Virus record (IMG/VR): IMGVR_UViG_3300037452_000118
Span: 32,001-96,000 of that record
Source of the DNA: a virus
DNA length: 64,000 nt
Reading direction: 5' to 3' (one strand)
The notes beneath the pieces were generated by a model. The model was not told where the DNA came from. It worked only from the letters and a program-made list of their open reading frames with translations, and did not search any database. The position numbers and the translations under genes are program-made. Each line of letters opens with the position of its first letter. Position 1 is the first letter of the stretch. Positions 12,880-51,603 of the stretch are shown in pieces.

Positions 12880-14577
12880 ATGATCACCGACCCCGACTCG
12901 ATCGATTGGAAGCATCCGGATTACTCCGCCATCTTCCGGGCGCGGCTCAAGGTGCTGGAGGCGATCCGCGCCGACCCTTCGGTGCTCCCCGCCTTGAAAG
13001 AGTATTACCGTGACAACCCCGCCGATTTCATCTCAGATTGGGGCTTGACCTACGAACCCCGCAACGCCGAGCGCAACCTGCCGACCTTTATCCCGTTCAT
13101 CCTTTTCCCGCGGCAGCGGGAGTGGGTAGACTGGGTAGTGGCGCATTGGCGGGCCGGAACGCCGGGACTGACGGAGAAGTCGCGCGATTGCGGCGTCTCC
13201 TGGCTGGCGATGGCCCTGTCTTGCACGCTCTGCCTTTTCCACGAAGGCATCGCCATCGGCGTCGGCAGCCGCAAGACAGAGTACGTTGACAAAATTGGCA
13301 CCTATAAGCCGCTTCTGCCGAAGGGCCGATTGTTCGTCGAGCACCTGCCGGAGGAGTTCCGCGGCGGTTGGGTGGACTGGCGCGACGCGCCGTTCATGCG
13401 GATCACGTTCCCGCAGACGCGGTCGATCATCGGCGGCGAGGGCGGCGACGACCTCGGCCGGGGAGATCGTACGTCGCTTTTCATAGTCGACGAGTTCGCA
13501 TATTTCGAAAGGCCGGAGCTGACGGAGATGTCGCTGTCGCAGACGACGAACTGCCGCATCGACGTTTCGTCCGTCGCTGGCATGAACAATAAGTTCGCCG
13601 AGAAACGGCATAGCGGTCGCGTCGACGTCTTCATTTTCGATTGGAAAGAAGATTTTCGGAAAGACCAGGAATGGTACGACAACCTCGGCAAGCCGGAATC
13701 TGAGGGCGGCAAGGGCCTCGATCCCGTCACCATCGCGCAGGAGGTCGACCGCGACTACTCCGCCTCGGTCGAGGGCATCGTCATCCCCGGGGCGTGGGTG
13801 CGCTCGGCGATCGACGCTCATCTCAAACTAAAGGTCGAGATCACCGGCCGGCGCGGCATGTCGCTCGACGTCGCCGACGAGGGCGCCGACAAGAACGCGG
13901 CGTGCCGGTCGCAGGGCATCCTCATTGAGGGCAGCGAGGAGTGGAGCGGCAAGGGCGCCGACATCTTCGACACCGTGCAGCGGGCCTTCAACATCTGCGA
14001 CCTCTACGGTATCCCTGACTTCGACTACGATTCCGACGGGCTAGGCGCTGGCGTCCGCGGCGATGCCCGGATCATCAACGAGACGCGCCGCGCGAACGGC
14101 GCAAAGCCGATCCCGGCGCTCGGCTTCCGCAGCTCCGAGGCCGTAGTCAACCCGGACGGCATCGTCGAGGGCACCATCGGACGCGACGACGACAAGGGGC
14201 GCCTCAACAAGGATTACTTCGCTAACCGAAAAGCGCAGGGCTGGTGGTCGCTGCGGCGGCGCTTCCAGAAGATCCACCGCTGGGTAGTCGACGGCGTCAA
14301 ATGTTCGCCAGACGAGATCGTCGCGATCAGCTCGAAGTGTCCCAACCATCTCAAGCTCGTCGCCGAACTCAGCCAGCCGACCTACGCCACGAACGGCGTC
14401 GGCAAGATCGTCATCAACAAGAAGCCGGGCGGCATGAAGAGCCCGAACATGGCCGACGCCTGCATGATCCGCTTCGCCCCGAAGGACCAGCAGCCCGCCG
14501 AGTACACCGCGGAGCTGACCCAGCTGATCCGGCAGTACGGCGCCCAGCGCCAGGCCCGCCGGAACCGCGGCCGTTGA
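12880..14577 (+). CDS. terL: Terminase large subunit
   Basis: Walker A-like EKSRDCGVSW, Walker B IVDEFA, nuclease LDVADEGAD and KSPNMADA. Confidence 0.92.
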   Translation: MITDPDSIDWKHPDYSAIFRARLKVLEAIRADPSVLPALKEYYRDNPADFISDWGLTYEPRNAERNLPTFIPFILFPRQREWVDWVVAHWRAGTPGLTEKSRDCGVSWLAMALSCTLCLFHEGIAIGVGSRKTEYVDKIGTYKPLLPKGRLFVEHLPEEFRGGWVDWRDAPFMRITFPQTRSIIGGEGGDDLGRGDRTSLFIVDEFAYFERPELTEMSLSQTTNCRIDVSSVAGMNNKFAEKRHSGRVDVFIFDWKEDFRKDQEWYDNLGKPESEGGKGLDPVTIAQEVDRDYSASVEGIVIPGAWVRSAIDAHLKLKVEITGRRGMSLDVADEGADKNAACRSQGILIEGSEEWSGKGADIFDTVQRAFNICDLYGIPDFDYDSDGLGAGVRGDARIINETRRANGAKPIPALGFRSSEAVVNPDGIVEGTIGRDDDKGRLNKDYFANRKAQGWWSLRRRFQKIHRWVVDGVKCSPDEIVAISSKCPNHLKLVAELSQPTYATNGVGKIVINKKPGGMKSPNMADACMIRFAPKDQQPAEYTAELTQLIRQYGAQRQARRNRGR

Positions 14578-15735: not shown

Positions 15736-16077
15736 TCCCAAAGGAGTTTCATGTGAAACAGTCGCTTGCAGGACGTTAGTATGGACAAGGCCGCACTGCC
15801 TGAAATGAGAGAAGGTCGCCCCGATGATTGGGTGGCCTCATGTGGCGTCTGTGACGAACCGTTCGCTATGCGAAACGCGGACGCCCCAGAAGGCAATCCT
15901 TATCCGCATGGGTGCTTTTGCCCAGACTGCCAAGCTCGGAAATTGATTGCGCCGGGGGTGCTGCACTGGCATCGCCGCGCGGAAAACGACTAACCGCCGA
16001 CAATCGCGCGCCGCGTGACACCTGCTTGATTCCCGGCCATACTGCGAGTCGCCTTTTCAAATCGGGGGACTAGCCTG

Positions 16078-16557
16078 ATGGCTGACCAACGGCGCGAGCG
16101 CGACAAGTCCGGCGCCGCCGCGGCGTTCGGCGTCGCGATCCTCCTCCTGCTGGCGGTCATGCTGGCTTGGTGCGGGCATCGCGTCCCGGCGGCGCTCCCG
16201 CCGGCCGCAGAGCCGCCGATCGTTGCGCCGACCCCTCCGGTTGTTGCGCCGGAACCCCCTCCCGTTGCATCGGAGCCGCCGGCCGTCGCGCAACCGGGCG
16301 AAGCGCCCCAGATGGCGCCGCAGGAAGAGCCGAAACCACCGGAACCGGCCGTTCCAGCTATGCCCCTGCCGCCAGATAGGGCCGTGGCGCCGCCGACCCC
16401 GCCAGACGCGGCGCCGCCGGCGCGGGCCACGCCAGCGGGCCCGGCGCCCGGTCGCGCCCCCGCCCCCCGCAGGCACCGGGCGCCCCGTCCCCGCGGCGAC
16501 CGCGGCTGCAGCCAAGCCTACCTGTCGATCTCCTGCCCGCAGAAGGAACGCCAATGA
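16078..16557 (+). CDS. Membrane-anchored proline-rich protein
   Basis: Hydrophobic N-terminal helix then Pro-rich tract; ATGA overlap with the portal gene. Confidence 0.55.
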   Translation: MADQRRERDKSGAAAAFGVAILLLLAVMLAWCGHRVPAALPPAAEPPIVAPTPPVVAPEPPPVASEPPAVAQPGEAPQMAPQEEPKPPEPAVPAMPLPPDRAVAPPTPPDAAPPARATPAGPAPGRAPAPRRHRAPRPRGDRGCSQAYLSISCPQKERQ

Positions 16558-19500
16558 CCAAGAAAGCCGGCCACGGCGGCCCGAGGCCCGGCGCCGGCCG
16601 CAAGCCGCTGACCCCCGAGGAGCAGGAGGCCAAGCGGGTTCGGCGGAACGAGGCCGCCCGGAAACGCCGCGCCGACGCCAAGGCGAAGGCCGCCGGCGCG
16701 GCCGTAGCCGAGGCCCCCGCCACCGTCCCCGCCGCGCCGAAGGGCCAGCAGGCGGGCGCCTGGGGCGACGCGCGGGCCATCGAGGCGCTGATGGAGCGGA
16801 TGGGCCAGCGGAGGAAGCGGAGCCGGGCGCCGGAGTTCAACCCGTTCCAGGTCGCCAAGCACCCGCCGCGGGCCACCCCGCCGAAGAAGCTCCAGATGGC
16901 GATGGACGACGGCACGATGGGCTGGGCGGCGAGCGCCTGGCTGGGCGGGTTCGGCGGCGTCTTCGGGGCGGTGGGCGCGGAGGGGCTGCAGTTCCTCGGC
17001 TACCCCTACCTGTCGGAGCTGGCGCAGCGGACGGAGTACCGCGTCATCTCGGAGACCATCGCCGACGACGCCACGCGGAAGTGGATCGACTTCGACGTCA
17101 CCGGCACCATCAAGGACAAGGAGAAGGGCCAGGACGACGAGGAGACCGAGGAGAAGGAGGAGGCCGGCGAGCCGGTCGACCCCGACGAGGAGAAGCAGAA
17201 GCGCGAGGACCGCGTGAAGTCCTCGGGCAAGATGGAGAAGGTGAAGCAGCTCAAGGACGAGCTGGCGCGGCTCGAGCTGCGGGACTGCATGTACCGGATC
17301 TGCCGCGACGACGGCTTCTTCGGGCGATCGCACCTCTACCTCGACTTCGGCGACGACCTCGACAAGACCGAGGCGATGAACGAGCTGAAGACGCCGATCG
17401 GCGACGGCCGCGACAAGCTCAGCCAGGGCAAGGTGGGACCGCAGAAGCCGCTGGCGGCGGTGCGCCCGGTCGAGCCGGTGTGGTGCTACCCGACGACCTA
17501 CAACGCCATCAACCCGCTGCGCGACGACTGGTACAACCCGCAGGTCTGGTACGTGATGGGCCGCGAGATCCACCGCAGCCGCCTGCCGACCTTCGTCGGC
17601 CACCCGGTCCCCGACCTCCTGAAGCCTGCGTACTCGTTCGGCGGCCTGTCGCTGTCGCAGATAGCGAAACCCTACGTCGACATCTGGCTGCAGACCCGGG
17701 ACAGCGTTGGGGAGCTGATCCACGCCTTCTCGACGATGGTGCTGCTGACCGACGTGCAGACCAACCTGGCGCCGGGGGCGACCGGCGGTCCGGGCACGCT
17801 GATGGCGCGCGTCGCCGCGTTCAACGACTTCCGCGACAACATGAACACCTTCGTGCTGAACAAAAATACGGAGGATTTCAAAAATGTGTCGGTCCCGCTC
17901 GGCGGCCTGCACGAGCTCCAGGCGCAGTCGCAGGAGCATGTTGCCTCGGCTGTACGCATCCCGCTCATCAAGTTCACGGGGCTGCAGCCTGCGGGACTCA
18001 ATGCGTCCGCCGAGGGTGAGGTGCGAGCATATTACGACACGATCGCGGCCTACCAGAACCGCTTCCTACGGCCCAACCTGACCCGCGTCCTCAACTTCGT
18101 GCAGCTCTCGCTATGGGGCGAGATTGACCCAGAAATTGTCTTCGACTTCGAGGGCCTCTGGGAGATGAGCGAGAAGGAGAAGGCCGACCTCCAGAAGGCC
18201 GAGGCGGAGCGCAACCAGACCTACGTCGACATGGGCGTCATCGCGCCGGAGGAGGTCCGCGGCGTGGTCATCGACGACCCCGAGCTGCCGTTCGGCGACC
18301 TCGACCCCGACGACGTGCCGGAGCTCAAGGAGGAGGAAGAGGGCGGCCTCATCCCGCCCGGCGGCGGGCGCGCCGAGGAGGCCATCATCGGCGAGCCGGG
18401 CGCGGAGCCCGGCGGTCCGGGCCGGCCGGCGGGCGCCCCGGCGCCGAAGCCCGGCGGCGGCCACGGCGACCCGGCGTTCCAGGAAGACGGGGGAGGCGCG
18501 GCGGCGGGGGCGCGCAACGTGGTCCCTTTCAGGGCGCGCGGCGCCGCTGACGAGCTGGACCCGCTCTTCGCCAGCCTCGCCAACGACGCCGCGATCGAGT
18601 GGAACGAGAGCAAGCACCCCCGCGACCCCAAGGGCGAGTTCACGGCTGGCGCGTCGGCTGGCGCGGCGTCCCATGCCGCGGAGACCGGCGCCGGCGCCCC
18701 GAAGGCCAAGGGCTACGGCTGGCACGGCGGCCCCCAGCAGCACTTCGTCATGCCGCAGTTCGGGCTGTGGGGGCCGCCGGGCAGTTTCGGCGGCGGGCAC
18801 TGGAGGCCGGAGCCGCGGCCGCCGCTCGACCCCTCGACGCTCAAGAAGGTCGGCCCGCAGATGGGGTCGAACCCCGGCGGCGTGTTCGAGGACGAGAAGG
18901 GGCGCAAGTTCTACGTCAAGGAGGGCCGGTCCAAGGACCACGTCCGCAACGAGCTCACCGCGGCCGACCTCTACGACCTCGCCGGCGCCCCGACGCTGCG
19001 CTACCGCGACGTCGCCGGCGGCGCGCACATAGCGTCGGAGATGGAGAAGCTCAGCAAGAAGAACGCGTCGGAGCTGTCGGCGGAGGAGGTGCGCAAGGCC
19101 AAGCGCGACTTCGCCGCGCACGCCTGGACGGCGAACTACGACGCGGTGGGCACCGGCGGCGACAACCTTGTCGCGGCGGGCCCGGACGTCTTCACGGTCG
19201 ACCTCGGCGGCGCGCTTGAATACCGGGCGCGCGGCAAGCCCAAGGGCGACGCGTTCGGGAACCAAGTCACAGAGATGGACACCATGCGCGATCCGAGCAT
19301 CGCGCCGGACGCCTCCGCGATCTTCGGCGACATCACCCCCGCCGAGTTCAGGGAATCGGCCGCCCGCGTGACGCGGATCAGCGACGGCGCCATCCGCGCC
19401 GCGGTCAAAGCGCGCGGCGGGTCGGACGCCTTGGCCGACAAGATGATCGCGCGGCGCGACGACATAGCGAAGCGGGCCAAGACTTTCGGCGCCGAGGGCG

Positions 19501-22500
19501 ATCCGAAGAAGAAGACCTCGACCGTGATCTTCCCCGCCGGCGACGCGCTACCGGTGAAGACGCTCAACGGGGTGGCGTTCGAGCCGTGGACGCCGCCGGC
19601 CGACGGCGACTGGAACGAGGTCGACGGCCAGATGGACATCGAGGACGAGGCGCCGCTGCCGGAGGGCGCGCAGGGCAAGCAGCTGGCCTCGGGACTGATC
19701 ATCAGGGAGAAGGACGGCCGCGTCTGGCTCGCCCGGCCGAAGGGTGGCTTCGGCGGATACGACAGCACATTTCCAAAGGGCCGGGTCGAGCACGCGCTGT
19801 CGATGCAGGCCAACGCGATCAAGGAGGCCTTCGAGGAGACCGGGCTCAAGGGGCGGATCACCGGCATGGCCGGCGACCGCGTCGGCGACGTCACGCTGAC
19901 CCGGTACTATCTCGCGGAGCGCGAGGGCGGCGATCCCAGCCGGCCCGGAGAGGAGAGCGAGGGCGTGGTGCTGGCGCCGGCGGACAAGCTCGACGGCTTC
20001 CTCAACCGCGACCGCGACCGCAAGCTGGCCAAGGAGATCGCCCAGGACGAGGAGCCCGGCGCGCCGCGGACGCTCTACGTCAACCGCCCGCTGCTCAACG
20101 CCGGCGACCTGGCGGCGTGGGCGCGGGAGCACGGCGTCAAGAAGCTGCTGCCGGCCGACGACATGCACGTTACCGTGGCGTTCAGCAAGGCGCCGCTGGC
20201 GTGGGCCGCTGCTGGGGACGGCGCGGCGAAGGTCGTCGCCGAGGGTGGCGAGCGGTCGGTCGAGCGCCTCGGCAACGAGGGCGCCGTAGTGCTGCGCTTC
20301 GAGTGCCCCGCGCTGGACCGGGACTGGCGGCGGTTCGTCGACGCCGGCGCCTCGTGGGACCATCCAGGCTACAAGCCGCACGTCACCTTCACGATGGGCG
20401 ACGTCGACGTCGACGCGGTCGAGCCCTACGACGGGCCGCTGGAGTTCGGGCCGGAAGAGTGGGACGAGATCGGCAACCGGCCGGCCGACTGGGCCGCCAA
20501 GGCGAAGGCCTCGCTGGTCGCCGCGGACGCCTTCGAGGAGGGCAAGCACCCCCGCGGGCAGCCGGAGAACAAGGGCCAGTTCGGCCCCGGAGGCGGCGGG
20601 GGCGGCCAGGCGAAGCGGACCTCGGCCGGCAGGCCGACGCCCCGGCGCGGGAGCGGGGCGGTGCTGCAAAGCCGGAGCCAGGGCGCCGCCCAGGCGGCGG
20701 CCGCGGCGCCGAAGCACGACTCCGCGAAGCTGCTGGAGAAGTCGGTCTCCGACGCGCTGGCGAAGGCCACGCCGAAGCAGAAAGAGCAGGCGGCCGACCA
20801 CGACCGCAAGACGAAAGCGTTCCTCGCCTCGGAGCCCGCCCGCAAGTCGATGGCGGCGTCGGTCAAGGCGTTCGCCGCCAAGCACGCCGCGGCGATGGCG
20901 AACTACCACCTCACCGACGCGATCATGCTGCCCGGGGTGCACCACGTCGTCGAGCAGGCGGTCTCTGCGATCGGGCTGGGCGCGGTGCCCGGCCTCACGC
21001 TGGGCGCCACCGCGGTCGCGGCGTACGCGGCGAACCGGCTGATCGAGACCTACCACCTCAACCTCACCGGGGCGAAGCAGCTGCTGGCGCCGGTGGTGCG
21101 CGGGATGGTCGACGTGCTCGGCAACGTCAAGGAGACCTCGGCGCGGATCGCCGACCTGGAGCGGCGCGGGCTCGTCGGGGCGGAGGACGCGAAACGCGAC
21201 GATACCGTGCTCGACGCGCTGATCGTACTGCTGCTGGAGGTCGAGAAGCTCGGCGAGGAGGAGCCGCAGGCCGAGGACGAGGCGCCGTTTGAGGAGTCGA
21301 AGCATCCCCGCGACGCGCACGGCGAGTTCACCAGCAAAGGCGGCGAGGGCGGGGGCGGGCAGTACATCGGCACTGGCGGCGAGGAGGATCCCGCGGAGCA
21401 GATCGCCGCGGCCAACGAGCCGCCGGCCGGCGAGGGCACGAAGCCGGTATCTACCAACGACATCGTGAAGAAGGCGAACGCGAACGCCGAGGCCGCCGGC
21501 CAGGGCGGCCTCGACGACGTGGACCCGCTGACGAGCGCGAAGCACAAGTACAACGCCGCGATCCAGCTCGGCGCCAACTACGCTACGGCGACGTGGGCGA
21601 CGACGCACGAGGAGGACGCGGCGCTCAAGCAGGTCTACAGCTCGACCGAAGACGCATGGAAAGCGCTCGCCGAGGCTGAGAAAAATAAGGCCGGCGACCC
21701 GCAACAATCGTTCAAGGCCGAGATCGCGAAGATCGACAACGCTGAGGGCGAGTACGCCGACCTCGATACCAACCTGAAATCTGCCGAAGCGAAGGTAAAG
21801 GCCGGCATGGCGCACGAGATGGCGCCGGATGATGTTGTCGATGCTCTCTCCGAGGTCGAATACAACGCGATCCAGAAGAAGTACGGCAACATTACCGGCG
21901 CCTACGCAGAGATGAAGAAGGCCGATGAGGAAAAACCTCAAGGAGCGCTGGAGTGGGCCAAAAAACTGCTTGAGACCGGGCTTGTCGGGCCAGAGGCGGA
22001 GAAGATTCTCGCCCACCTTGATACGATCGGATACGGCGACACCGACAAACTCAATGCTTTGATCGCGCAGGCTGCCGGGAAAGAAGCGCCCACTCCACAA
22101 GCCAAGGAGGGCAAAACCAAGTTCGGCGGCCTGTGGAAGGTGACCGGCCTCGGCGAGAAGGCGGACATCCAGCTCAACGCCAAGACGGTGCTCCTCAAAC
22201 CGACCAACGCCGGACAGAGCTACCGGCAGATGATGACGTTCCTGATCAACAACGCCGCGGCCGGCGACCTCGACGCCGACATCGTCGGCAAATTGAAAGT
22301 TAAACTGGTCGAGGCGCTCTACAAGGCCAGCGACAAGGCGACTCAGCTCGGCAAGGAGGGCGACGCCAAGAAGATCAACCTCGCGCTGAACAAGATCAGC
22401 ATGAAGGAGCCGGCCATCCTCGCCGCCGGGATGGGGGCGTGGGAGGCCAGCAAGAACGGCCAGCCGCCGCCGGCCTACAAGCCCCCGCAGCCCGAGCCCG

Positions 22501-23777
22501 ATCCGGCGCCGCAATCCAAGCCGACCGTGAACGACAAGGCGATGGCCTCCTTCAAGAAAGCTGCCGCCGCGATGTGGAAGAAGGCCGGTTACGGCCCCGA
22601 CAGCAAGGGCGATTCGGTCACCGCGTCCGAGAAGGCCAAGCTGGCCGCGCAGCACGGCATCTCGACGCAAGACCTCATCGACAATCTCACCTTGGCGGAG
22701 AACAAGTCGCTGAAGGATTTTTACGGCTCGATCGCCAACGCGATGAATTGGGCCGCGAACAAGGTCGAACCCGACGCCAACGAGGCGAAGGAGGTCGCCA
22801 CGATCGCGCCGGCGACGTCCGCGTCGGAGCCACCGTCATCGTTGAAGGCGACCTATGCCGAGATCACCAAGGCGAAGAAGACCGCTCCGCTCCAACTGCA
22901 GTACGTGCCGAACGCGCCGCAGACCGATGAAGCGCAGAAGCTCGTCGACGAGTTCAACGCGAAGTGGTCCGGCAAGGAGGTCGACGACGACATCGCGCTG
23001 AAGAAGATCGCCGACTTCAAGGCGATGCAGCAGAAGATGGTGCCGCTGATGAACGCGGCGCAGAAGGCGGCGGCGGAGCAGAACGCCAAGATCGCCGCGG
23101 AGGCGAAAAAATCGCAGGCGGAGCAAGTCGCGAAGTCGGCGAAGGAGACCGCGAAGCACGCGGCGCAGCTCGAGGAGTACAAGAAGGAACTCGGCGTCGG
23201 CGACGCGGAGGCCGAGGCCTTCGAGGGCCTGGTCGACATGCTCGGCGGCGACAAGCAGAAGGTGCTGGCCAGTTTCAAGAGCTACGCTACCTCCGCAGGC
23301 CACGGCCTGACCGGCTTCGAGGGCAAGCTGATCGCGGGCTACAAGTCGGACAGCAGCGTCGTCAACGCGGAGATGCGGAAGCCTATGGCGTCGTGGAAGT
23401 CGCCGAAGTTCATGTACGCCAAGATATTGAACAAGGCGCTGTCGAAGCTGCCCGGCTACAGCGGCGTCACGATCAGGAACACGCCGCTGAGCAGCGAGCT
23501 GCAGATGCGCTACCAGCCCGGCAACGTCGTCATGGAGCACGGCTTCACCGGGACCTCGAAGCAGAAGCCGAACGGGGTGTTCAGCGGCAACACGAGGTTC
23601 TACATCAAGGGGATCGGCAAGCGGGCGGCCGACATCTCGGAGATGTACGGCTTCCAGGGCGAGGGCGAGGTGCTCTACCAAGCGCACACCGCCTTCCACG
23701 TCGACAAGGTCGAGGGCCAGGTAGGCAGCGACGGCGAGGCGAGCTACAAGGTCTACATGACCGAGCTGGAGGTTTGA
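16554..23777 (+). CDS. Giant portal (DUF1073-like) fusion with kinase-like, Nudix, 2H phosphoesterase (Acb1-like) and ADP-ribosyltransferase domains
   Basis: Portal ~16896-18330 (FLGYPYLSELAQR, IPLIKFTGLQPAGLNASAEGE); kinase-like ~18840-19490 (GSNPGG, FYVK, NE, D..G..DN, VDLGG); Nudix box GRVE..AIKEAFEETGL ~19670-20040; two HxT motifs (HVTV, HVTF) ~20068-20470; ART R..GTS..EGE ~23310-23777. Confidence 0.88.
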   Translation: MTKKAGHGGPRPGAGRKPLTPEEQEAKRVRRNEAARKRRADAKAKAAGAAVAEAPATVPAAPKGQQAGAWGDARAIEALMERMGQRRKRSRAPEFNPFQVAKHPPRATPPKKLQMAMDDGTMGWAASAWLGGFGGVFGAVGAEGLQFLGYPYLSELAQRTEYRVISETIADDATRKWIDFDVTGTIKDKEKGQDDEETEEKEEAGEPVDPDEEKQKREDRVKSSGKMEKVKQLKDELARLELRDCMYRICRDDGFFGRSHLYLDFGDDLDKTEAMNELKTPIGDGRDKLSQGKVGPQKPLAAVRPVEPVWCYPTTYNAINPLRDDWYNPQVWYVMGREIHRSRLPTFVGHPVPDLLKPAYSFGGLSLSQIAKPYVDIWLQTRDSVGELIHAFSTMVLLTDVQTNLAPGATGGPGTLMARVAAFNDFRDNMNTFVLNKNTEDFKNVSVPLGGLHELQAQSQEHVASAVRIPLIKFTGLQPAGLNASAEGEVRAYYDTIAAYQNRFLRPNLTRVLNFVQLSLWGEIDPEIVFDFEGLWEMSEKEKADLQKAEAERNQTYVDMGVIAPEEVRGVVIDDPELPFGDLDPDDVPELKEEEEGGLIPPGGGRAEEAIIGEPGAEPGGPGRPAGAPAPKPGGGHGDPAFQEDGGGAAAGARNVVPFRARGAADELDPLFASLANDAAIEWNESKHPRDPKGEFTAGASAGAASHAAETGAGAPKAKGYGWHGGPQQHFVMPQFGLWGPPGSFGGGHWRPEPRPPLDPSTLKKVGPQMGSNPGGVFEDEKGRKFYVKEGRSKDHVRNELTAADLYDLAGAPTLRYRDVAGGAHIASEMEKLSKKNASELSAEEVRKAKRDFAAHAWTANYDAVGTGGDNLVAAGPDVFTVDLGGALEYRARGKPKGDAFGNQVTEMDTMRDPSIAPDASAIFGDITPAEFRESAARVTRISDGAIRAAVKARGGSDALADKMIARRDDIAKRAKTFGAEGDPKKKTSTVIFPAGDALPVKTLNGVAFEPWTPPADGDWNEVDGQMDIEDEAPLPEGAQGKQLASGLIIREKDGRVWLARPKGGFGGYDSTFPKGRVEHALSMQANAIKEAFEETGLKGRITGMAGDRVGDVTLTRYYLAEREGGDPSRPGEESEGVVLAPADKLDGFLNRDRDRKLAKEIAQDEEPGAPRTLYVNRPLLNAGDLAAWAREHGVKKLLPADDMHVTVAFSKAPLAWAAAGDGAAKVVAEGGERSVERLGNEGAVVLRFECPALDRDWRRFVDAGASWDHPGYKPHVTFTMGDVDVDAVEPYDGPLEFGPEEWDEIGNRPADWAAKAKASLVAADAFEEGKHPRGQPENKGQFGPGGGGGGQAKRTSAGRPTPRRGSGAVLQSRSQGAAQAAAAAPKHDSAKLLEKSVSDALAKATPKQKEQAADHDRKTKAFLASEPARKSMAASVKAFAAKHAAAMANYHLTDAIMLPGVHHVVEQAVSAIGLGAVPGLTLGATAVAAYAANRLIETYHLNLTGAKQLLAPVVRGMVDVLGNVKETSARIADLERRGLVGAEDAKRDDTVLDALIVLLLEVEKLGEEEPQAEDEAPFEESKHPRDAHGEFTSKGGEGGGGQYIGTGGEEDPAEQIAAANEPPAGEGTKPVSTNDIVKKANANAEAAGQGGLDDVDPLTSAKHKYNAAIQLGANYATATWATTHEEDAALKQVYSSTEDAWKALAEAEKNKAGDPQQSFKAEIAKIDNAEGEYADLDTNLKSAEAKVKAGMAHEMAPDDVVDALSEVEYNAIQKKYGNITGAYAEMKKADEEKPQGALEWAKKLLETGLVGPEAEKILAHLDTIGYGDTDKLNALIAQAAGKEAPTPQAKEGKTKFGGLWKVTGLGEKADIQLNAKTVLLKPTNAGQSYRQMMTFLINNAAAGDLDADIVGKLKVKLVEALYKASDKATQLGKEGDAKKINLALNKISMKEPAILAAGMGAWEASKNGQPPPAYKPPQPEPDPAPQSKPTVNDKAMASFKKAAAAMWKKAGYGPDSKGDSVTASEKAKLAAQHGISTQDLIDNLTLAENKSLKDFYGSIANAMNWAANKVEPDANEAKEVATIAPATSASEPPSSLKATYAEITKAKKTAPLQLQYVPNAPQTDEAQKLVDEFNAKWSGKEVDDDIALKKIADFKAMQQKMVPLMNAAQKAAAEQNAKIAAEAKKSQAEQVAKSAKETAKHAAQLEEYKKELGVGDAEAEAFEGLVDMLGGDKQKVLASFKSYATSAGHGLTGFEGKLIAGYKSDSSVVNAEMRKPMASWKSPKFMYAKILNKALSKLPGYSGVTIRNTPLSSELQMRYQPGNVVMEHGFTGTSKQKPNGVFSGNTRFYIKGIGKRAADISEMYGFQGEGEVLYQAHTAFHVDKVEGQVGSDGEASYKVYMTELEV

Positions 23778-23781
23778 GGCG

Positions 23782-24204
23782 ATGGCGAAGCTGGAGCATC
23801 AGTACGGCGTCGGAGAGCGGTCCGACGGCACGATCGACACGTTCCCGATGAGCGAGTGGCCTGCAAGACTGGCGGAGCTCCGCGCGATGCTCGATGGCGA
23901 GACGAAGCCCGACGACCTCGAAGATCTCGGCGCGATCGAGAAGTTGTTCGAGGCGGAGCCCAAAGATGCCGCGGCTGACGAGCGCCGGACGGTCCGCGTT
24001 TTCAAGCTGAAGCCGCCCGGCGGCGAAGCGTTCGTGGCCGCGCTGGCCGGCGGCCGCATCGTGTCGAACCGTGCCGGGAAATGGGCGGACGAGGATCAGA
24101 TCAGCGTCGCCGACCTCGCGATGCCGGAGCAGCGGCTCGGCGAGTGGGACGTCGAGGAGATCCCGGCCGACGATCCAAGAGTCGCCGCGCTTCGGCGCCA
24201 GTAA
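23782..24204 (+). CDS. Hypothetical protein directly after the ART domain
   Basis: SD GGAGG; 4-nt gap to the upstream stop. Confidence 0.6.
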   Translation: MAKLEHQYGVGERSDGTIDTFPMSEWPARLAELRAMLDGETKPDDLEDLGAIEKLFEAEPKDAAADERRTVRVFKLKPPGGEAFVAALAGGRIVSNRAGKWADEDQISVADLAMPEQRLGEWDVEEIPADDPRVAALRRQ

Positions 24205-24805
24205 CGATGCGGGCATCGCCGGTCACGCCGTCGATAACCTTGACCGAATAATCGTAGATCAAATCGCCGACCGTTGCCGGTGCGAGCATCTCGCGTAACG
24301 CCCAAAACTCCACGCCTTGCCCCGAGACAGCATAAAGTTCGCCGCGCTCGGTGACCTCCTTGCGGCCGACCTTGAACGGCTTGCCAAGCAGCGCATTGAA
24401 ATCGACGGACCACCAAGCGGCGCCATCTGGAGGGGGAGGCGGCGTTGCAACGAGGGTTACTGTATCATCGAGGCTTATGGGCTTCGATAATCCTAATGTC
24501 TCGGCCGCCTCTGGCGACATGAACAATGTCTGAGGTTCTGGAATCGCCTCCCGCATGACCGCGGCGAGAAGTTGCGCACTCTCCCATACCTGCCACGTCG
24601 GGTCACGCTGCTGCGCGTCCCAGACCCAGGACAGCGCCGCCAGAACATCGCGCGCCGCAGATTCCCGTTCCCAGTTGAACTTTCGCGCGTCTGCCAAAAA
24701 GTCTTGGCAACCCCGCAGATATGCCCGCGCCTGCTCCAACTCGGACGGCGGCCGCACCAAATGGGTGACGTCGACTATTTGGGTGACGTTCTGCAAGGTG
24801 GTCAT
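24101..24805 (-). CDS. Hypothetical protein
   Basis: SD GGAG before ATG at 24805; 3' end overlaps the opposite-strand ORF. Confidence 0.45.
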   Translation of the reverse strand: MTTLQNVTQIVDVTHLVRPPSELEQARAYLRGCQDFLADARKFNWERESAARDVLAALSWVWDAQQRDPTWQVWESAQLLAAVMREAIPEPQTLFMSPEAAETLGLSKPISLDDTVTLVATPPPPPDGAAWWSVDFNALLGKPFKVGRKEVTERGELYAVSGQGVEFWALREMLAPATVGDLIYDYSVKVIDGVTGDARIVTGAEARRLLDRRPGSPRRPTRRAAAPASRGRRR

Positions 24806-35878: not shown

Positions 35879-35953
35879 GGCCCCTGAAGCATTGTGACGA
35901 TGCAGCCGCCCCGTAAGCGGCAGAGCCGTGTTTGATTCACGGCTGGGGCTCCA
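35879..35953 (+). tRNA. tRNA-Thr(CGT)
   Basis: CCGC-CCCGTAA-GCGG; CCA. Confidence 0.72.
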
Positions 35954-35954
35954 T

Positions 35955-36030
35955 GCTCTCTTAGCTCATTTGGTAGAGCACCGAGTTGGTATCTCGGAGG
36001 CGGGTGGATCGAAGCCACCAGGGAGCACCA
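35955..36030 (+). tRNA. tRNA-Thr(GGT)
   Basis: CCGAG-TTGGTAT-CTCGG; CCA. Confidence 0.88.
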
Positions 36031-36035
36031 TTTTC

Positions 36036-36112
36036 GGCCTCGTAGTCCAACTGGCAGAGACGACGCCCTCAGAAGGCGTGCGTTGGGAGTTCGAATCTCC
36101 CCGAGGCTACCA
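36036..36112 (+). tRNA. tRNA-Leu(CAG)
   Basis: ACGCC-CTCAGAA-GGCGT; short variable loop. Confidence 0.85.
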
Positions 36113-36116
36113 ATTC

Positions 36117-36193
36117 GCTCGCGTATGCAAATCGGTAAAGCAGCGAAGCTCAAACCTTCGTGTTTGGAGATTCGAGTTCTCCCGCGAGCACCA
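36117..36193 (+). tRNA. tRNA-Leu(CAA)
   Basis: CGAAG-CTCAAAC-CTTCG; short variable loop. Confidence 0.82.
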
Positions 36194-36194
36194 T

Positions 36195-36271
36195 GCCGCA
36201 GTAGCCCAATTGGCAGAGGCATCCGGCTTAAACCCGGTTCAGTGCGGGATCGTGGCCCGCTTGCGGCACCA
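36195..36271 (+). tRNA. tRNA-Leu(TAA)
   Basis: CCGG-CTTAAAC-CCGG; short variable loop. Confidence 0.82.
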
Positions 36272-36277
36272 TTTCAC

Positions 36278-36349
36278 GGGCGCTTAGCTCAGAGGAAGAG
36301 CGTCGCGTTTACACCGCGAAGGTCGAGATATCATAATTCTCAGCGCCTA
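36278..36349 (+). tRNA. tRNA-Val(TAC)
   Basis: TCGCG-TTTACAC-CGCGA; no encoded CCA. Confidence 0.8.
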
Positions 36350-36350
36350 C

Positions 36351-36425
36351 GGGCTGTTAGTTCAGCGGCAGAATGCTTGCTCGACACGCAAGAGGTCCGG
36401 TGTTCGATTCACCGACAGCCCACCA
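36351..36425 (+). tRNA. tRNA-Val(GAC)
   Basis: CTTGC-TCGACAC-GCAAG; CCA. Confidence 0.85.
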
Positions 36426-36429
36426 TCAT

Positions 36430-36503
36430 GGTCCTGTATCTCAGTGGCAGAGAACGCGGCCGATAACCGTGAGACGCGGGTTCGATTCCCGACGGGACTA
36501 CCA
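36430..36503 (+). tRNA. tRNA-Ile(GAT)
   Basis: CGCGG-CCGATAA-CCGTG; CCA. Confidence 0.85.
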
Positions 36504-36550
36504 ACGAAAGGAACTAGGAAAATGCTCTATCCGCTCAAACGCGGGTCTGC

Positions 36551-36625
36551 GGACCCGTGGTGTAATAGGTAGCACACGAGACTTTTAATCTTGGAGCCAG
36601 AGTTCAAATCTCTGCGGGTCTACCA
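36551..36625 (+). tRNA. tRNA-Lys(TTT)
   Basis: CGAGA-CTTTTAA-TCTTG; CCA. Confidence 0.85.
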
Positions 36626-36631
36626 AATAAC

Positions 36632-36707
36632 GGACGACTAGCTCAATTGGCAGAGCATCCGCCTCTTAAGCGGCAGGTTCGGGGATCGTGGCCCCGGTCG
36701 TCCTCCA
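36632..36707 (+). tRNA. tRNA-Lys(CTT)
   Basis: CCGC-CTCTTAA-GCGG; CCA. Confidence 0.85.
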
Positions 36708-36708
36708 T

Positions 36709-36784
36709 GTGCCAGTACCCCAACGGTAGAGGGATCGCCCTGAGAAGGCGTTCAGTGGGCGTTCGAATCGCCCTTGGCACACCA
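36709..36784 (+). tRNA. tRNA-Leu(GAG)
   Basis: CGCC-CTGAGAA-GGCG; short variable loop. Confidence 0.8.
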
Positions 36785-36785
36785 T

Positions 36786-36859
36786 GCGGCTATAGCTCAA
36801 AGGCAGAGCGTTCGGTTGTCAACCGAGGGACCGGGGATCAATACCCCGTAGCCGCGCCA
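36786..36859 (+). tRNA. tRNA-Asp(GTC)
   Basis: TTCGG-TTGTCAA-CCGAG; GCCA end. Confidence 0.85.
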
Positions 36860-36865
36860 ATTCAA

Positions 36866-36942
36866 CAGGGTGTAGCTCAGTCTGGTAGAGCACTTGCTTC
36901 GGAAGCAAGGGGCCGCAGGATCGAAGCCTGCCACCCTGACCA
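36866..36942 (+). tRNA. tRNA-Pro(CGG)
   Basis: CTTGC-TTCGGAA-GCAAG; CCA. Confidence 0.9.
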
Positions 36943-36946
36943 ATTC

Positions 36947-37021
36947 GGCCGTCTAGCTTAACGGCAGAGCCCGCGCCTCATAAGCGCAGTGATGCGAGTT
37001 CGACTCTCGCGGCGGCTACCA
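36947..37021 (+). tRNA. tRNA with CAT anticodon (Met or Ile2)
   Basis: GCGC-CTCATAA-GCGC; CCA. Confidence 0.8.
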
Positions 37022-37031
37022 GGAGGCGGCC

Positions 37032-37358
37032 ATGCGCTGCATCGTCAAATACGAGCATCCGAAAAGATTGCTCCGCGTCTACGTGCACGGCGCGCCTCAT
37101 CGGCGCGTCCATCGCGAAGTGCTCAAACGCTACCGCGAGGAATTGTGGAAGGCGGCGCAGGCTGCGGGCATCACGGCGGCGATGACCCATCAAATAACTT
37201 TGTCGGCGACGTTCATCGACCCGACGGGACCGGACTTGGACAACCTCATCACGGCGCTGTTTCAGGCGCTGGACGGCAAATGCGGGAAAGGTCCGACGAT
37301 CTTGAAAGACGACAAACAGATCGTCTACATCGAAAAAACTGGGATCATCTTCCCTTAG
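37032..37358 (+). CDS. RusA-like Holliday junction resolvase/endonuclease inside the tRNA array
   Basis: PDLDNLITALFQALDG..LKDDKQIV; SD AGGAGG. Confidence 0.7.
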   Translation: MRCIVKYEHPKRLLRVYVHGAPHRRVHREVLKRYREELWKAAQAAGITAAMTHQITLSATFIDPTGPDLDNLITALFQALDGKCGKGPTILKDDKQIVYIEKTGIIFP

Positions 37359-37425
37359 CTCATTTGGACAGAGCACCCGGTTCCGAACCGGGAGGTACGG
37401 TGTTCGAATCACCGAGGGAAGGCCA
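37349..37425 (+). tRNA. tRNA-Arg(CCG)
   Basis: CCCGG-TTCCGAA-CCGGG; overlaps the RusA-like stop codon. Confidence 0.88.
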
Positions 37426-37429
37426 ACAT

Positions 37430-37514
37430 GGATGGTTTGCCGGCGGCCCGGCGGCGAGTTTTGAAAACTCGTAGCACCGAAAGGTGTGGCGATCGACACG
37501 TCAACCATCCGCCA
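37430..37514 (+). tRNA. tRNA-Ser(TGA)
   Basis: CGAGT-TTTGAAA-ACTCG; long variable arm. Confidence 0.8.
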
Positions 37515-37518
37515 ATAC

Positions 37519-37604
37519 GGAAGGCTAACCGAACAGGGTTCGGCGTCGCCTGGAAAGCGCACGGCTCGGCAACGAGTGGAGATCGTGTCTTCAGCCTTCC
37601 GCCA
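37519..37604 (+). tRNA. tRNA-Ser(GGA)
   Basis: CGC-CTGGAAA-GCG; long variable arm; GCCA. Confidence 0.75.
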
Positions 37605-37608
37605 TTAC

Positions 37609-37698
37609 GGAAAGTCAACGCGGCGAGTGCCGCGCGCCCGTTCGAAGCGGGATGGAACGCGCATAGCGTTTGGGGATCAAGACCTCGGCTTTCCGCCA
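37609..37698 (+). tRNA. tRNA-Ser(CGA)
   Basis: CCCG-TTCGAAG-CGGG; long variable arm; GCCA. Confidence 0.75.
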
Positions 37699-37702
37699 TT
37701 GA

Positions 37703-37776
37703 CGCGCGATGGAGGAGGAGTTCCTTGCTAGGCTCATAACCTGGAGACGTCGGTGCAAGTCCGGCTCGCGCAACCA
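37703..37776 (+). tRNA. Initiator-like tRNA-fMet(CAT)
   Basis: C1:A72 mismatch; CTAGG-CTCATAA-CCTGG. Confidence 0.78.
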
Positions 37777-37781
37777 ACTAA

Positions 37782-37868
37782 GGGCAAGTATGCAAGAGGC
37801 CAAAGCAGCGGCGCTGTAAACGCCGTCCCGAAAGGGTTCGCAGGTTCGAATCCGTGCCTTGCCCACCA
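37782..37868 (+). tRNA. tRNA-Tyr(GTA)
   Basis: CGGCG-CTGTAAA-CGCCG; long variable arm. Confidence 0.88.
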
Positions 37869-37869
37869 T

Positions 37870-37943
37870 GCGGACAAAGGATTACGGCAGTCTCCCTCGT
37901 TGCCAACGAGGTGGCGGGAGTTCGACTCTCCCTGTCCGTACCA
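37870..37943 (+). tRNA. tRNA-Gly(GCC)
   Basis: CCTCG-TTGCCAA-CGAGG. Confidence 0.82.
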
Positions 37944-37945
37944 AC

Positions 37946-38021
37946 GCCCACTAAGCTAATCTGGTGAAAGCGTCTGCCTGAAGAGCAGAAGAGCGTGGCT
38001 CGAAACCACGAGTGGGCACCA
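37946..38021 (+). tRNA. tRNA-Phe(GAA)
   Basis: TCTGC-CTGAAGA-GCAGA. Confidence 0.85.
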
Positions 38022-38025
38022 ATCT

Positions 38026-38097
38026 GGGCCGGGCGTCGGGACGCAGTGATGCCTTGCAAGCAACGCGTTGGGAGTTCAACTCTCCCTCGGTCCACCA
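38026..38097 (+). tRNA. tRNA-Ala(TGC)
   Basis: TGC-CTTGCAA-GCA; G3:U70 pair; reduced D-arm. Confidence 0.72.
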
Positions 38098-38104
38098 ATT
38101 TTAT

Positions 38105-38178
38105 TCCCCTCTCGTTCAACGGTAGGACACCTGACTGTTAATCAGAGAATTGTGGTTCGATTCCACGGAGGGGAGCCA
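38105..38178 (+). tRNA. tRNA-Asn(GTT)
   Basis: CTGA-CTGTTAA-TCAG; GCCA. Confidence 0.9.
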
Positions 38179-38181
38179 ATT

Positions 38182-38256
38182 GCCGCCATCGTCTAGTGGC
38201 TAGGATATTTGGTTCTCAACCAAATGAAGCGGGGTCGGAACCCGCTGGCGGCTCCA
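38182..38256 (+). tRNA. tRNA-Glu(CTC)
   Basis: TTTGG-TTCTCAA-CCAAA. Confidence 0.85.
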
Positions 38257-38262
38257 TTTTAC

Positions 38263-38339
38263 GGTGGGCGTAGCTCAATCGGTAGAGCACCAGATTGTGA
38301 ATCTGGTGGCCACGGGTTCGATCCCCGTCGCTCACCCCA
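38263..38339 (+). tRNA. tRNA-His(GTG)
   Basis: G-1, CCAGA-TTGTGAA-TCTGG, CCCA end. Confidence 0.92.
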
Positions 38340-38340
38340 A

Positions 38341-38417
38341 GGTCCCATAGCTCAACTGGACAGAGTGCCAGATTACGAATCTGGGAGATCGGGGTTCGAA
38401 TCCTCGTGGGATCGCCA
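38341..38417 (+). tRNA. tRNA-Arg(ACG)
   Basis: CCAGA-TTACGAA-TCTGG. Confidence 0.92.
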
Positions 38418-38422
38418 TTTAA

Positions 38423-38499
38423 CAGGGAGTGGGAAAGTCTGGTAATCCGCTTGCCTTGGAAGCAAGAGATCGCGGGATCGAAGCCCGCCTCCCTGACCA
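38423..38499 (+). tRNA. tRNA-Pro(TGG)
   Basis: CTTGC-CTTGGAA-GCAAG. Confidence 0.85.
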
Positions 38500-38502
38500 A
38501 TT

Positions 38503-38576
38503 GCCCCTTTCGCTCAATGGTAGGGCGCTGCGCTCTGAACGCAGATACGGTGGTTCGATTCCATCAAGGGGTGCCA
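38503..38576 (+). tRNA. tRNA-Gln(CTG)
   Basis: CTGCG-CTCTGAA-CGCAG. Confidence 0.88.
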
Positions 38577-38580
38577 TGAT

Positions 38581-38655
38581 GTTGCAGTGCCGAGAGTGGC
38601 TATCGGCCGGTCTGCAAAACCGAGAACGCGAGTTCGATCCTCGCCTGCAACTCCA
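38581..38655 (+). tRNA. tRNA-Cys(GCA)
   Basis: CGGT-CTGCAAA-ACCG; TCCA end. Confidence 0.85.
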
Positions 38656-38659
38656 TCTT

Positions 38660-38735
38660 GCGCTCGTAGCTCAGTGGACAGAGCGGCCGGTTTCTACCCG
38701 GTTGGTCCGGGGTTCGAATCCTCGCGAGCGCGCCA
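38660..38735 (+). tRNA. tRNA-Arg(TCT)
   Basis: GCCGG-TTTCTAC-CCGGT. Confidence 0.9.
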
Positions 38736-38736
38736 C

Positions 38737-38813
38737 GGTCACGTAGCTCAATTGGACAGAGCCGCAGTTTCCTAAACTGCCGTGTGGGGGTTCGAGTCCT
38801 CCCGTGATCGCCA
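38737..38813 (+). tRNA. tRNA-Arg(CCT)
   Basis: GCAGT-TTCCTAA-ACTGC. Confidence 0.9.
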
Positions 38814-38818
38814 TTTTT

Positions 38819-38902
38819 GGAGAGTTAATTCGGCAGGGACCGAACGCGGTTTGCTAAACCGTTGGTGCCGCAAGGCATGGGAATCGTGCTCTCAACTCTC
38901 CG
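38819..38902 (+). tRNA. tRNA-Ser(GCT)
   Basis: GCGGT-TTGCTAA-ACCGT; long variable arm. Confidence 0.8.
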
Positions 38903-38903
38903 C

Positions 38904-38977
38904 GCGGGTATGGTATATAGGCTGTGCCCAAGGCTTCCAACCTTGTGAACGGAGTTCGAGTCTCCGTGCCCGCACCA
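38904..38977 (+). tRNA. tRNA-Gly(TCC)
   Basis: CAAGG-CTTCCAA-CCTTG. Confidence 0.88.
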
Positions 38978-38983
38978 AATAAC

Positions 38984-39058
38984 GGCCCCTTAGTTTACTG
39001 GCTAGAATCTCCGGCCTTCACCCGGAAGGAAGCGGATCGAAACCGCTAGGGGCTGCCA
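38984..39058 (+). tRNA. tRNA-Glu(TTC)
   Basis: TCCGG-CCTTCAC-CCGGA. Confidence 0.8.
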
Positions 39059-39062
39059 AAAT

Positions 39063-39136
39063 AGCCGGTTCGTTCAACGGTAGGACGTGGGACTTTGAAT
39101 CCCACTATGAGGGTTCGATTCCTTCACCGGCTGCCA
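39063..39136 (+). tRNA. tRNA-Gln(TTG)
   Basis: TGGGA-CTTTGAA-TCCCA. Confidence 0.9.
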
Positions 39137-39137
39137 T

Positions 39138-39211
39138 GGCGGCAGAGCGCTGGGTCTCAGCGGTTCCTCATAAGGACCGTGTGCGCGGATCGTCACCGCG
39201 GGCCGCTACCA
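39138..39211 (+). tRNA. tRNA-Met(CAT), atypical
   Basis: GGTTC-CTCATAA-GGACC; degenerate D and T arms; CCA. Confidence 0.65.
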
Positions 39212-39214
39212 AAT

Positions 39215-39289
39215 ACGGGTGTAAGATAACGGTAGTCGGCAGGTCTCCAAAACCTTGCAGTCCGGGTTCAAATCCTGGCACCCGTGCCA
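39215..39289 (+). tRNA. tRNA-Trp(CCA)
   Basis: AGGT-CTCCAAA-ACCT; GCCA. Confidence 0.88.
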
Positions 39290-39607: not shown

Positions 39608-39801
39608 GCGCGCTGGTCCCGAAGACGGCGGCGCGGCGCAGGATGCTGATGGGCACCGCGATCTACCACGCCGGCGCCGCCCCGCACCTCTTCGGCACGA
39701 TCCCGCGGGCGGTCGTCGTCCCGGAGGGGACGCCGGAGCGCGTCGTCGAGAGGCTCAGCAAGGCTCAGATCAAGGCGGCGCGGAAAGAGGAGAAGCGGTG
39801 A
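39604..39801 (+). CDS. Hypothetical protein
   Basis: GTGA overlaps at both ends. Confidence 0.45.
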   Translation: MSALVPKTAARRRMLMGTAIYHAGAAPHLFGTIPRAVVVPEGTPERVVERLSKAQIKAARKEEKR

Positions 39802-51523: not shown

Positions 51524-51603
51524 CATTTGTCGTGCGCCCCGCGCCGTGTTAATTGGTGCGCGGTGCGGTGCGCCGACTCAGGGGCGCCAAGGGAGACTTC
51601 GCG

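Follow-up and report, generated by a model that had tools for sequence, protein, structure and literature searches.

The 64,000-nucleotide window analysed here (bases 32001–96000 of the 128,813-bp IMG/VR virus record IMGVR_UViG_3300037452_000118) encodes a portal protein, P0001, of 2407 amino acids (window 16554–23777, plus strand; 257.6-kDa precursor), in which the phage portal domain is followed by a protein-kinase-like domain, a Nudix domain, an Acb1-type 2H phosphoesterase and an ADP-ribosyltransferase (ART). We give a slightly better than even chance to the reading that the portal is made as a precursor and cut at A-x-D sites, and that its cargo is kept in the head and ejected into the next host. 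As a protein, P0001 is an especially rich example of a class that has already been described, and not a new principle; what the present analysis adds is the grammar of its junctions, namely an A-x-D site followed by a sequence tag, or an A-x-D site alone in front of Acb1. The original prediction had placed portal, kinase-like, Nudix and 2H domains, helical regions and an ART of the R-S-E type in one open reading frame (ORF), and each of these domains was recovered.

The ORF is real and continuous. Its ATG start codon overlaps the stop codon of the upstream gene as ATGA, and its G+C content at third codon positions (GC3) is 0.93 overall and 0.76–0.99 per 200-codon window; because this value is high in every window, a single frame is coding from end to end. 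Positions 16239–24300 are spanned by single Logan contigs of 16,025 bp (run X1) and 16,061 bp (run X2) with 0 differences, and the depth is flat across this interval, at 85 in one run and 224 in the other; X1 or X2 is possibly the source sample of the window itself. An independent soil run (X3) contains 14 pieces, all matching at 99% or more, eight listed pieces of which fall within 16002–23806. A variant strain of the region is present in run X4, all eight public runs listed as containing some of the window carry a soil-metagenome label, and a protein identical to P0001 is on record for five contigs. The read-derived contigs thus bear out the continuity on which the original prediction depended. 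An assembly chimera, or a frameshift concealed in the long ORF, is extremely improbable: no point in support of it was found, and the flat depth, the two identical single contigs, the pieces from the independent run, the uniform GC3 and the collinearity of relatives all argue against it. The low-depth ‘joints’ seen in the region are as expected from other organisms, since their sides are of about 20 letters and their depth is 3–18, versus 85 and 224.

The portal domain occupies residues 108–596 (16875–18341; this and the following bracketed positions in P0001 are window coordinates on the plus strand) in the match to PHROG 146 (E 5e-96). Within it, the Pfam family Phage_portal_3 (PF06381, HI1409-type) matches residues 152–553 (E 2e-67; 227.6 bits versus a cut-off of 33.8), covering profile positions 3–354 of 357, and an NCBIfam scan contributed nothing beyond the HI1409 portal family and weak Nudix matches. 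An Ala/Arg-rich extension (residues 1–118; 16554–16907) precedes the domain. Because this extension, with its GGxRxGAGRK motif, ends at an A-M-D site (A116-M-D118), N-terminal trimming of the portal is conceivable as well. The basic GGxRxGAGRK motif itself (residues 8–18; window 16575–16607, plus strand) is kept in nearly all portal relatives. After the portal domain, a Gly/Ala/Pro-rich linker (residues 597–678; 18342–18587), containing A-x-D sites at 664–666 and 676–678, leads into the cargo.

The first enzyme-like domain of the cargo, at residues 757–987 (18822–19514), has a two-lobed protein-kinase-like fold, as judged from an AlphaFold2 model, and keeps the catalytic and metal-binding residues. 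The region 750–987 has no Pfam match, and no PDB sequence match even at E 10. Its model, built with 29 sequences, has a mean predicted local distance difference test score (pLDDT) of 93.5 and matches CtkA of H. pylori (Z 14.9 over 211 residues; root-mean-square deviation 3.5) and CotH (Z 13.1), followed by PI4K-II-alpha, LepB, actin-fragmin kinase and HipA. Invariant in the 29 aligned sequences are G771-x4-G776, K789, E800, D863, D870-N871 and D883. The phage domain shares with the group of atypical kinases CtkA, CotH, PI4K-II and HipA the fold, the Gly-loop, the Lys, the Glu, the Asp/Asn pair and the Asp-x-Gly, at an identity of 10–14%.

The next two modules have Pfam matches above the cut-off. 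The Nudix module spans residues 988–1165 (19515–20048), with a Pfam NUDIX match at 1043–1146 (37 bits versus a cut-off of 21.1), and ends at A1163-Q-D1165. The consensus of the Nudix box is GX5EX7REUXEEXGU; the box at residues 1076–1098 retains the G, E1091, E1094, E1095 and the GL pair but has L for the first E and K for the R, and the family consensus carries the same variant of the box. The Acb1-type 2H phosphoesterase module (residues 1166–1325; 20049–20528; 160 residues, 17.2 kDa) has an A-x-D site on both sides and no tag. Acb1 (PF23474) matches residues 1172–1307 with 101.7 bits versus a cut-off of 27, and both HxT motifs, H1205-V-T and H1276-V-T, align to those of T4 Acb1 (PDB 7t26). 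The two share membership of the 2H fold family and have both HxT/S motifs in place, but T4 Acb1 is a free protein, whereas the phage domain is carried by the portal as a 160-residue module between two A-x-D sites. These boundaries are favoured because a product of 160 residues is close to the 144 positions of the Pfam model.

The rest of the cargo begins with a module at residues 1346–1575 (20589–21278) that is predicted to be helical and ends at A1573-E-D1575. It holds the only hydrophobic stretch of P0001, at about 1471–1493, which is Gly/Ala-rich with a peak 19-residue hydropathy mean of 1.61. An AlphaFold2 model of residues 1321–1600 (tag 2, helical module and tag 3; six sequences) is helical with a pLDDT of 45.6, and its fold is unusable. 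An Ala/Lys/Glu-rich region follows (residues 1596–2230; 21339–23243), for which Pfam and the protein atlas gave no usable match to any family; its last part is conserved in front of the ART in relatives. The C-terminal domain (residues 2231–2407; 23244–23774) is a Tre1/C3-like ART with R2308, T2334-S2335 and E2370-x-E2372. Residues 2183–2407 match the Tre1 chain 6dre_B as the best PDB sequence match (phmmer E 5e-8), and R2308, G-T2334-S2335 and E2370-G-E2372 align in order to the R, STS and ExE of Tre1; an ExE motif marks arginine-specific ADP-ribosyltransferases. C3-like exoenzymes are comparable. Tre1 of Serratia (PDB 6dre) is a type VI secretion effector, unlike the phage ART, and the similarity spans 95 residues.

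The same layout is found in relatives at 50–82% identity. Searching with residues 600–1600 of P0001 listed a family of 32 proteins, 27 of which contain the PF06381 portal domain and are 1327–2792 residues long; precomputed Pfam matches among the 32 include NUDIX in 20, ART in 11 and Acb1 in 10. P0003 (2792 residues), P0004 (2079 residues) and P0006 (2274 residues) are collinear with P0001. The catalytic residues of the four enzyme domains are retained among relatives at 35–88% identity. The cargo itself is mobile: the Acb1 module comes first in P0008–P0011, P0003 has one additional module with tags on its flanks, and in P0030 Acb1 is joined to a DUF2213 protease. P0004, encoded on a 28-kb IMG/VR contig, is 68% identical to P0001 over residues 6–1598, and beyond tag 3 its cargo is swapped for a different C-terminal sequence. 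At the DNA level, the ORF had no match in the phage collection.

The modules of P0001 are joined in a regular manner. The tag, [WF]xExxHPRx3GxF, reads [WF]xE[SG]KHPR...G[EQ]F followed by a Gly-rich run in P0001 and stands at three module starts: tag 1 at residues 679–697 (18588–18644; [W]xExxHPRx3GxF), tag 2 at residues 1326–1343 (20529–20582; the long-spacer form HPRx7GxF) and tag 3 at residues 1576–1592 (21279–21329). The motif proper covers about residues 683–697, 1327–1343 and 1579–1592. The genome has no further canonical copy; among the 32 listed relatives, 29 carry the tag one to four times per protein, always between modules. P0001 contains nine A.D[AE] sites versus 5.2 expected, and those at D678, D1325 and D1575 end 1–4 residues before the aromatic residue of tags 1–3, an arrangement with a chance of about 3e-5. 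Another site, D1165, marks the boundary between Nudix and Acb1, where there is no tag, and a further one lies in the linker after the portal. Across the family, an A.D is found within the 12 residues scanned upstream of 51 of 68 tags.

The capsid gene of the phage offers a candidate for the same cut. The major capsid protein (MCP; window 45047–46141, plus strand) has a single A.D[AE] site, A42-M-D44, at the boundary between propeptide and mature protein; the D is present in this column in 15 of 17 aligned MCPs, and the site aligns to A62-M-D64 of the Pbunavirus MCP. According to the accessible text on phage E217 (PMC10329688), the first 65 residues of its MCP lack density and the model begins at residue 66. 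In the cultured Burkholderia phage BcepNY3, the portal is followed by AQD/AA and then by a Nudix domain, and the MCP contains YAMD/AA (the slash marks the candidate cut). Among the tags listed from IMG/VR, an A.D lies upstream of 30 of 68 where DUF2213 or Phage_portal_3 is present in the locus, versus four of 66 elsewhere (p 3e-7). This split indicates that the upstream site tracks the head module, which the tag does not. Taken as a sequence pattern, the A-x-D sites support cutting at A-x-D, short of proof.

P0001 is the sole portal gene detected in the complete genome, where PF06381 has one match. The profiles PF04860, PF05136 and PF05133 found no second portal in the complete genome; PF07230 was also without a match there, its positive control being likewise silent. 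Since no portal gene other than the fused one was found, every subunit of the ring would be made as the long precursor. The C-terminal end of the portal faces the capsid interior in solved portals, and the portal ring is a 12-mer. The cargo of P0001 lies C-terminal to the portal domain, so that its anatomy fits a portal carrying enzyme cargo into the head.

We infer the following course for packaging, cutting, ejection and targeting. The portal domain would assemble into a 12-mer ring at the head vertex with a 184-kDa C-terminal cargo hanging from each subunit into the prohead (12 × 184 kDa, or about 2.2 MDa of cargo per head). The DUF2213 head protease of the phage would then cut the precursor at A-x-D sites, the same site as at the MCP propeptide boundary, and would yield four products: residues 679–1165 with tag, kinase-like domain and Nudix (51.9 kDa); residues 1166–1325 with Acb1 (17.2 kDa); residues 1326–1575 with a tag and the helical, partly hydrophobic module (25.9 kDa); and residues 1576–2407 with tag, helical region and ART (88.6 kDa). 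Because the cargo is covalently bound to the portal ring, its release requires cleavage, for which candidate sites have been found. The freed products would remain in the head and exit with the DNA at the next infection. In the next host, Acb1 would destroy cyclic-nucleotide defence signals, the Nudix enzyme would hydrolyse a nucleotide or a compound of the ADP-ribose type, and the ART would modify a host protein on arginine. The original prediction had seen in the portal a loader for a package of counter-defence enzymes. The anatomy agrees with the loader, in that the cargo is C-terminal and the portal is the only one; the defined counter-defence role, however, holds for Acb1 only, and calling the kinase-like, Nudix and ART domains ‘anti-host’ is conjecture.

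The same covalent link could mean that the cargo remains attached to the portal ring without ever being delivered. It would then work at the vertex or in the head, for instance in plugging, in organising DNA or in spacing, or would be dead weight. Cleavage is unobserved, 12 copies would by our estimate fit the head easily, and the accessible text of the paper on cyanophage Pam3 lists five parts of the portal without a released domain. Yet four enzyme domains have kept their catalytic residues across relatives, although a head filled with DNA offers them no evident substrate; these modules are also found as free tagged genes between portal and protease genes, and the conserved A-x-D sites lie exactly at module boundaries. 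We therefore consider a permanently tied cargo unlikely.

A somewhat less unlikely alternative, still of low probability, is that the fusion is an expression device, by which the enzymes are made late and act, cut or uncut, in the producing cell against late defences. The gene does lie in the late head module beside the terminase, and defences of the CBASS (cyclic-oligonucleotide-based anti-phage signalling system) type are often triggered by late proteins. In addition, such ARTs might counter immunity aimed at the packaging apparatus, as suggested in the accessible text of Iyer et al. 2022 (PMC9503650). A portal-bound enzyme, however, is limited to few copies per cell compared with the product of a free early gene, and the proteins that carry the fusions are those of the prohead core (portal or protease in 27 of the 32 relatives and in 28 of 79 tagged ORFs), which points to encapsidation.

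Several observations weigh against delivery of a cleaved cargo. An A.D is missing upstream of 17 of the 68 family tags; it is a commonplace tripeptide in a protein as rich in Ala and Asp as P0001, where two of the nine A.D[AE] sites (170 and 917) are inside folded domains and two more (995 and 1543) lack conservation or an explanation. The motif ‘MA[FLM]D’ also opens the DUF2213 and portal homology regions, so that the pattern is perhaps partly domain sequence. In E217, the first 65 MCP residues are either cleaved or disordered, and the model starts from 66, not 65, in the accessible text (PMC10329688). Two consensus positions of the Nudix box are changed (the first E is replaced by L, and R by K). 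The ART is under the Pfam cut-offs (PF03496, ADPrib_exo_Tox, at 2322–2394 with 19.3 versus 23.4; PF01129 with 14.7 versus 22.3); the version of the domain in relatives does pass, PF03496 being the precomputed match in 11 of the 32 listed proteins. The tag is found with three or more types of portal or anchor, and with different proteases. Lastly, no virion proteomics, N-termini or enzyme assays were found for the phage or for tagged relatives. For the reasons given above, we still favour cutting in the head followed by ejection.

The tag itself extends well beyond this family. Scanning IMG/VR with a back-translated pattern found it in at least 113 loci; the matches listed contain 136 tags over 122 ORFs, all but one of which are open. 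Pfam domains on 79 listed tagged ORFs include Phage_portal_3 (20), LPD3 (11), DUF2213 (8), ART (8), Zeta_toxin (6), the lambda-type portal Phage_portal_2 (5) and NUDIX (4), and the tag is also found on a MuF protein beside an XkdF-type protease. The tag need not be internal: 38 of the 136 listed tags are within the first 60 residues of the ORF, often right after the Met. Ten small ORFs with an N-terminal tag were scanned, and in four a Pfam domain follows the tag (LPD13, LPD3 twice, and ART); five have no Pfam match and one has a weak unrelated match. We note an unfused order at locus L118 (6663–14496, minus strand), which reads portal, two free genes starting with the tag, DUF2213 protease and MCP.

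That the tag is a site for the head protease was considered and dropped, as it also occurs with lambda-type portals, with MuF and an XkdF-type protease, and at the N-termini of free genes. Given its spread over different anchor types and proteases, it cannot be the site of one protease. Could it act at the level of DNA only? The HPR motif might serve mainly as a recombination junction at which cassettes are swapped, comparable to the conserved pre-toxin motifs that polymorphic toxins have, and be without function in the protein itself. P0004 and P0001 exchange cargo exactly at tag 3, the module order is shuffled, the extra module of P0003 is flanked by tags, and small tagged genes lie near the main genes like orphan cassettes. 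Nevertheless, the motif is conserved as protein in contigs of very different sequence, it stands at the very N-terminus, right after the Met, of free genes that are apparently expressed, and it is followed by a Gly-rich linker, features that point to a peptide function. A purely recombinational tag is thus quite unlikely; a recombination role and a peptide role are mutually compatible.

The presence of the tag on free genes and across head lineages suggests, as a pattern of sequence, a loading or ejection signal. We propose tentatively, and with clearly less than even confidence, that it is a portable head-cargo tag of tailed phages, which works across portal, MuF and head-protease lineages, each placing its own protease site just upstream, so that the polyproteins would be cut into tagged enzymes in the head. 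The capsid-targeting sequence of T4 and the cargo-loading peptides of encapsulins would be analogues of such a general tag. A complex prediction of the tag-3 peptide with the MCP and the protease domain, run without controls, scored 0.00 and gave no answer. Motif-string searches did not find the tag in the phage papers that they covered; in the main text of Iyer et al. 2017, ‘HPR’ appears only within ‘HHPRED’, the accessible texts of the MuF-toxin and Hardycor1 papers hold nothing on the motif, and a literature search on capsid targeting and cargo returned nothing specific to the tag. A tblastn search with a 27-residue tag piece gave a single chance match (E 10).

Three observations concern the tagged proteins and their relatives. 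A type IB topoisomerase occurs as tagged cargo on the lambda-type portal of locus L044 (3075–5963, plus strand) and on the Phage_portal_3 portal P0021. Hint/intein domains (PF13403, PF14890) are present in the portal relatives P0005, P0012 and P0013 and, because they interrupt the conserved portal domain, their sequences suggest that these portal genes carry inteins. In the Pakpunavirus-like Pseudomonas phage Jeremy (L006, 4087–9072), a free 1213-residue kinase-like protein ending in an ART is followed by a Nudix gene. The canonical tag is absent from Jeremy's 1213-residue protein, and its separate Nudix protein has a partial ‘KHPR’ stretch near the N-terminus. In Pakpunavirus P7-1, gp68 and gp69 are reported to be probably inside the capsid; the accessible text does not state their identity.

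The general idea of enzymes riding on head proteins dates from 2017 and is a hypothesis. The paper that defined ‘polyvalent proteins’ describes portal or MuF proteins that carry 2H, PBECR and pyrophosphatase domains, and proposes that the 2H domains degrade nucleotides made by defence systems (accessible text of Iyer et al. 2017, PMC5512222). In the later paper, MuF, portal and capsid-processing peptidase are the fusion partners of ART, Nudix and 2H domains, which are described as probably packaged and injected, especially by myoviruses (accessible text, PMC9503650). Having been published by Iyer et al. in 2017 and 2022, this is the standing hypothesis of the class, and the interpretation in the original prediction coincides with it. 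P0001 has two features of the class: it carries at least two distinct effector domains (kinase-like, Nudix, Acb1 and ART in one chain) in a neighbourhood of head proteins, being fused to Phage_portal_3 with the large terminase (TerL) candidate upstream and protease, MCP and sheath downstream. As far as the accessible texts go (PMC5512222; PMC9503650), it shares with the published proteins the many effectors per chain on a head protein of a portal-terminase phage, and 2H, Nudix, ART and kinase are all named there. It differs in its own domain set and order, and the junction of cut site plus tag is not described there, supplements aside; the kinase family is described in these texts without a C-lobe.

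Simpler versions are found in cultured phages. The deposited sequence of gp3, the solved virion portal of cyanophage Pam3 (PDB 8hds), has an Acb1-like C-terminus (phmmer E 5e-23), on which the accessible text of the Pam3 paper makes no comment; this is one C-terminal Acb1-like domain on the portal versus four modules in P0001. Gp16 of BcepNY3 is a 695-residue portal of the Phage_portal_3 type that ends, after its AQD/AA, in one Nudix domain; unlike P0001, it has a single cargo domain and no HPR tag. A cargo pathway of this kind is known from T4, whose internal proteins and Alt use a capsid-targeting sequence, are cut by the gp21 prohead protease and are ejected with the DNA, the ART acting at once on proteins of the host. 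The likeness is in logic only (N-terminal signal, prohead core, cut, ejection), and no relation in sequence is claimed. Unlike in T4, the cargo of these phages is covalently fused to portal or protease, and the tag is downstream of the proposed cut and would be kept on the product.

The record from which the window is taken has direct terminal repeats and a CheckV completeness of 100%, and the phage is an uncultured myophage with a contractile tail, whose terminase candidate, DUF2213 head protease, MCP, tail sheath and baseplate wedge are encoded in the window. The large terminase candidate (12880–14577, plus strand) lies 2 kb upstream of the portal. The protease is itself a cargo fusion of 704 residues (39798–41912, plus strand), with Nudix at 57–162, followed by a degenerate stretch resembling the tag, then a middle domain that P0030 also has, and DUF2213 at 518–684. 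The phage thus has two different Nudix domains, borne by two head proteins, the portal and the protease. A scaffold-like protein (42219–43334, plus strand) matches the C-terminal half of the protease-scaffold family PHROG 2229. Between the portal region and the protease and capsid genes, 31 tRNA genes are arrayed at 35880–39289 (plus strand). A repeat domain (PHROG 21413 / 38233, annotated as tail-fibre-like) is inserted in four window proteins, namely a minor head protein, an unknown protein, the tail sheath and the baseplate wedge protein (43964–45004, 50546–51523, 51553–53553 and 60239–62128, plus strand).

Delivery of the cargo would mean that Acb1, the Nudix enzyme, the kinase-like enzyme and the ART, at about 12 copies of each, are present in the host before any phage gene is expressed, and would make pre-loaded counter-defence testable. 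From the combination of a lineage-specific cut site with a widespread tag, the sizes and N-termini of the products can be predicted exactly. Were the tag a loading signal, chosen proteins could be packed into phage heads with its help; and if it is a general head-cargo tag, the 2407-residue portal would be a four-module example of an undescribed cargo-loading system.

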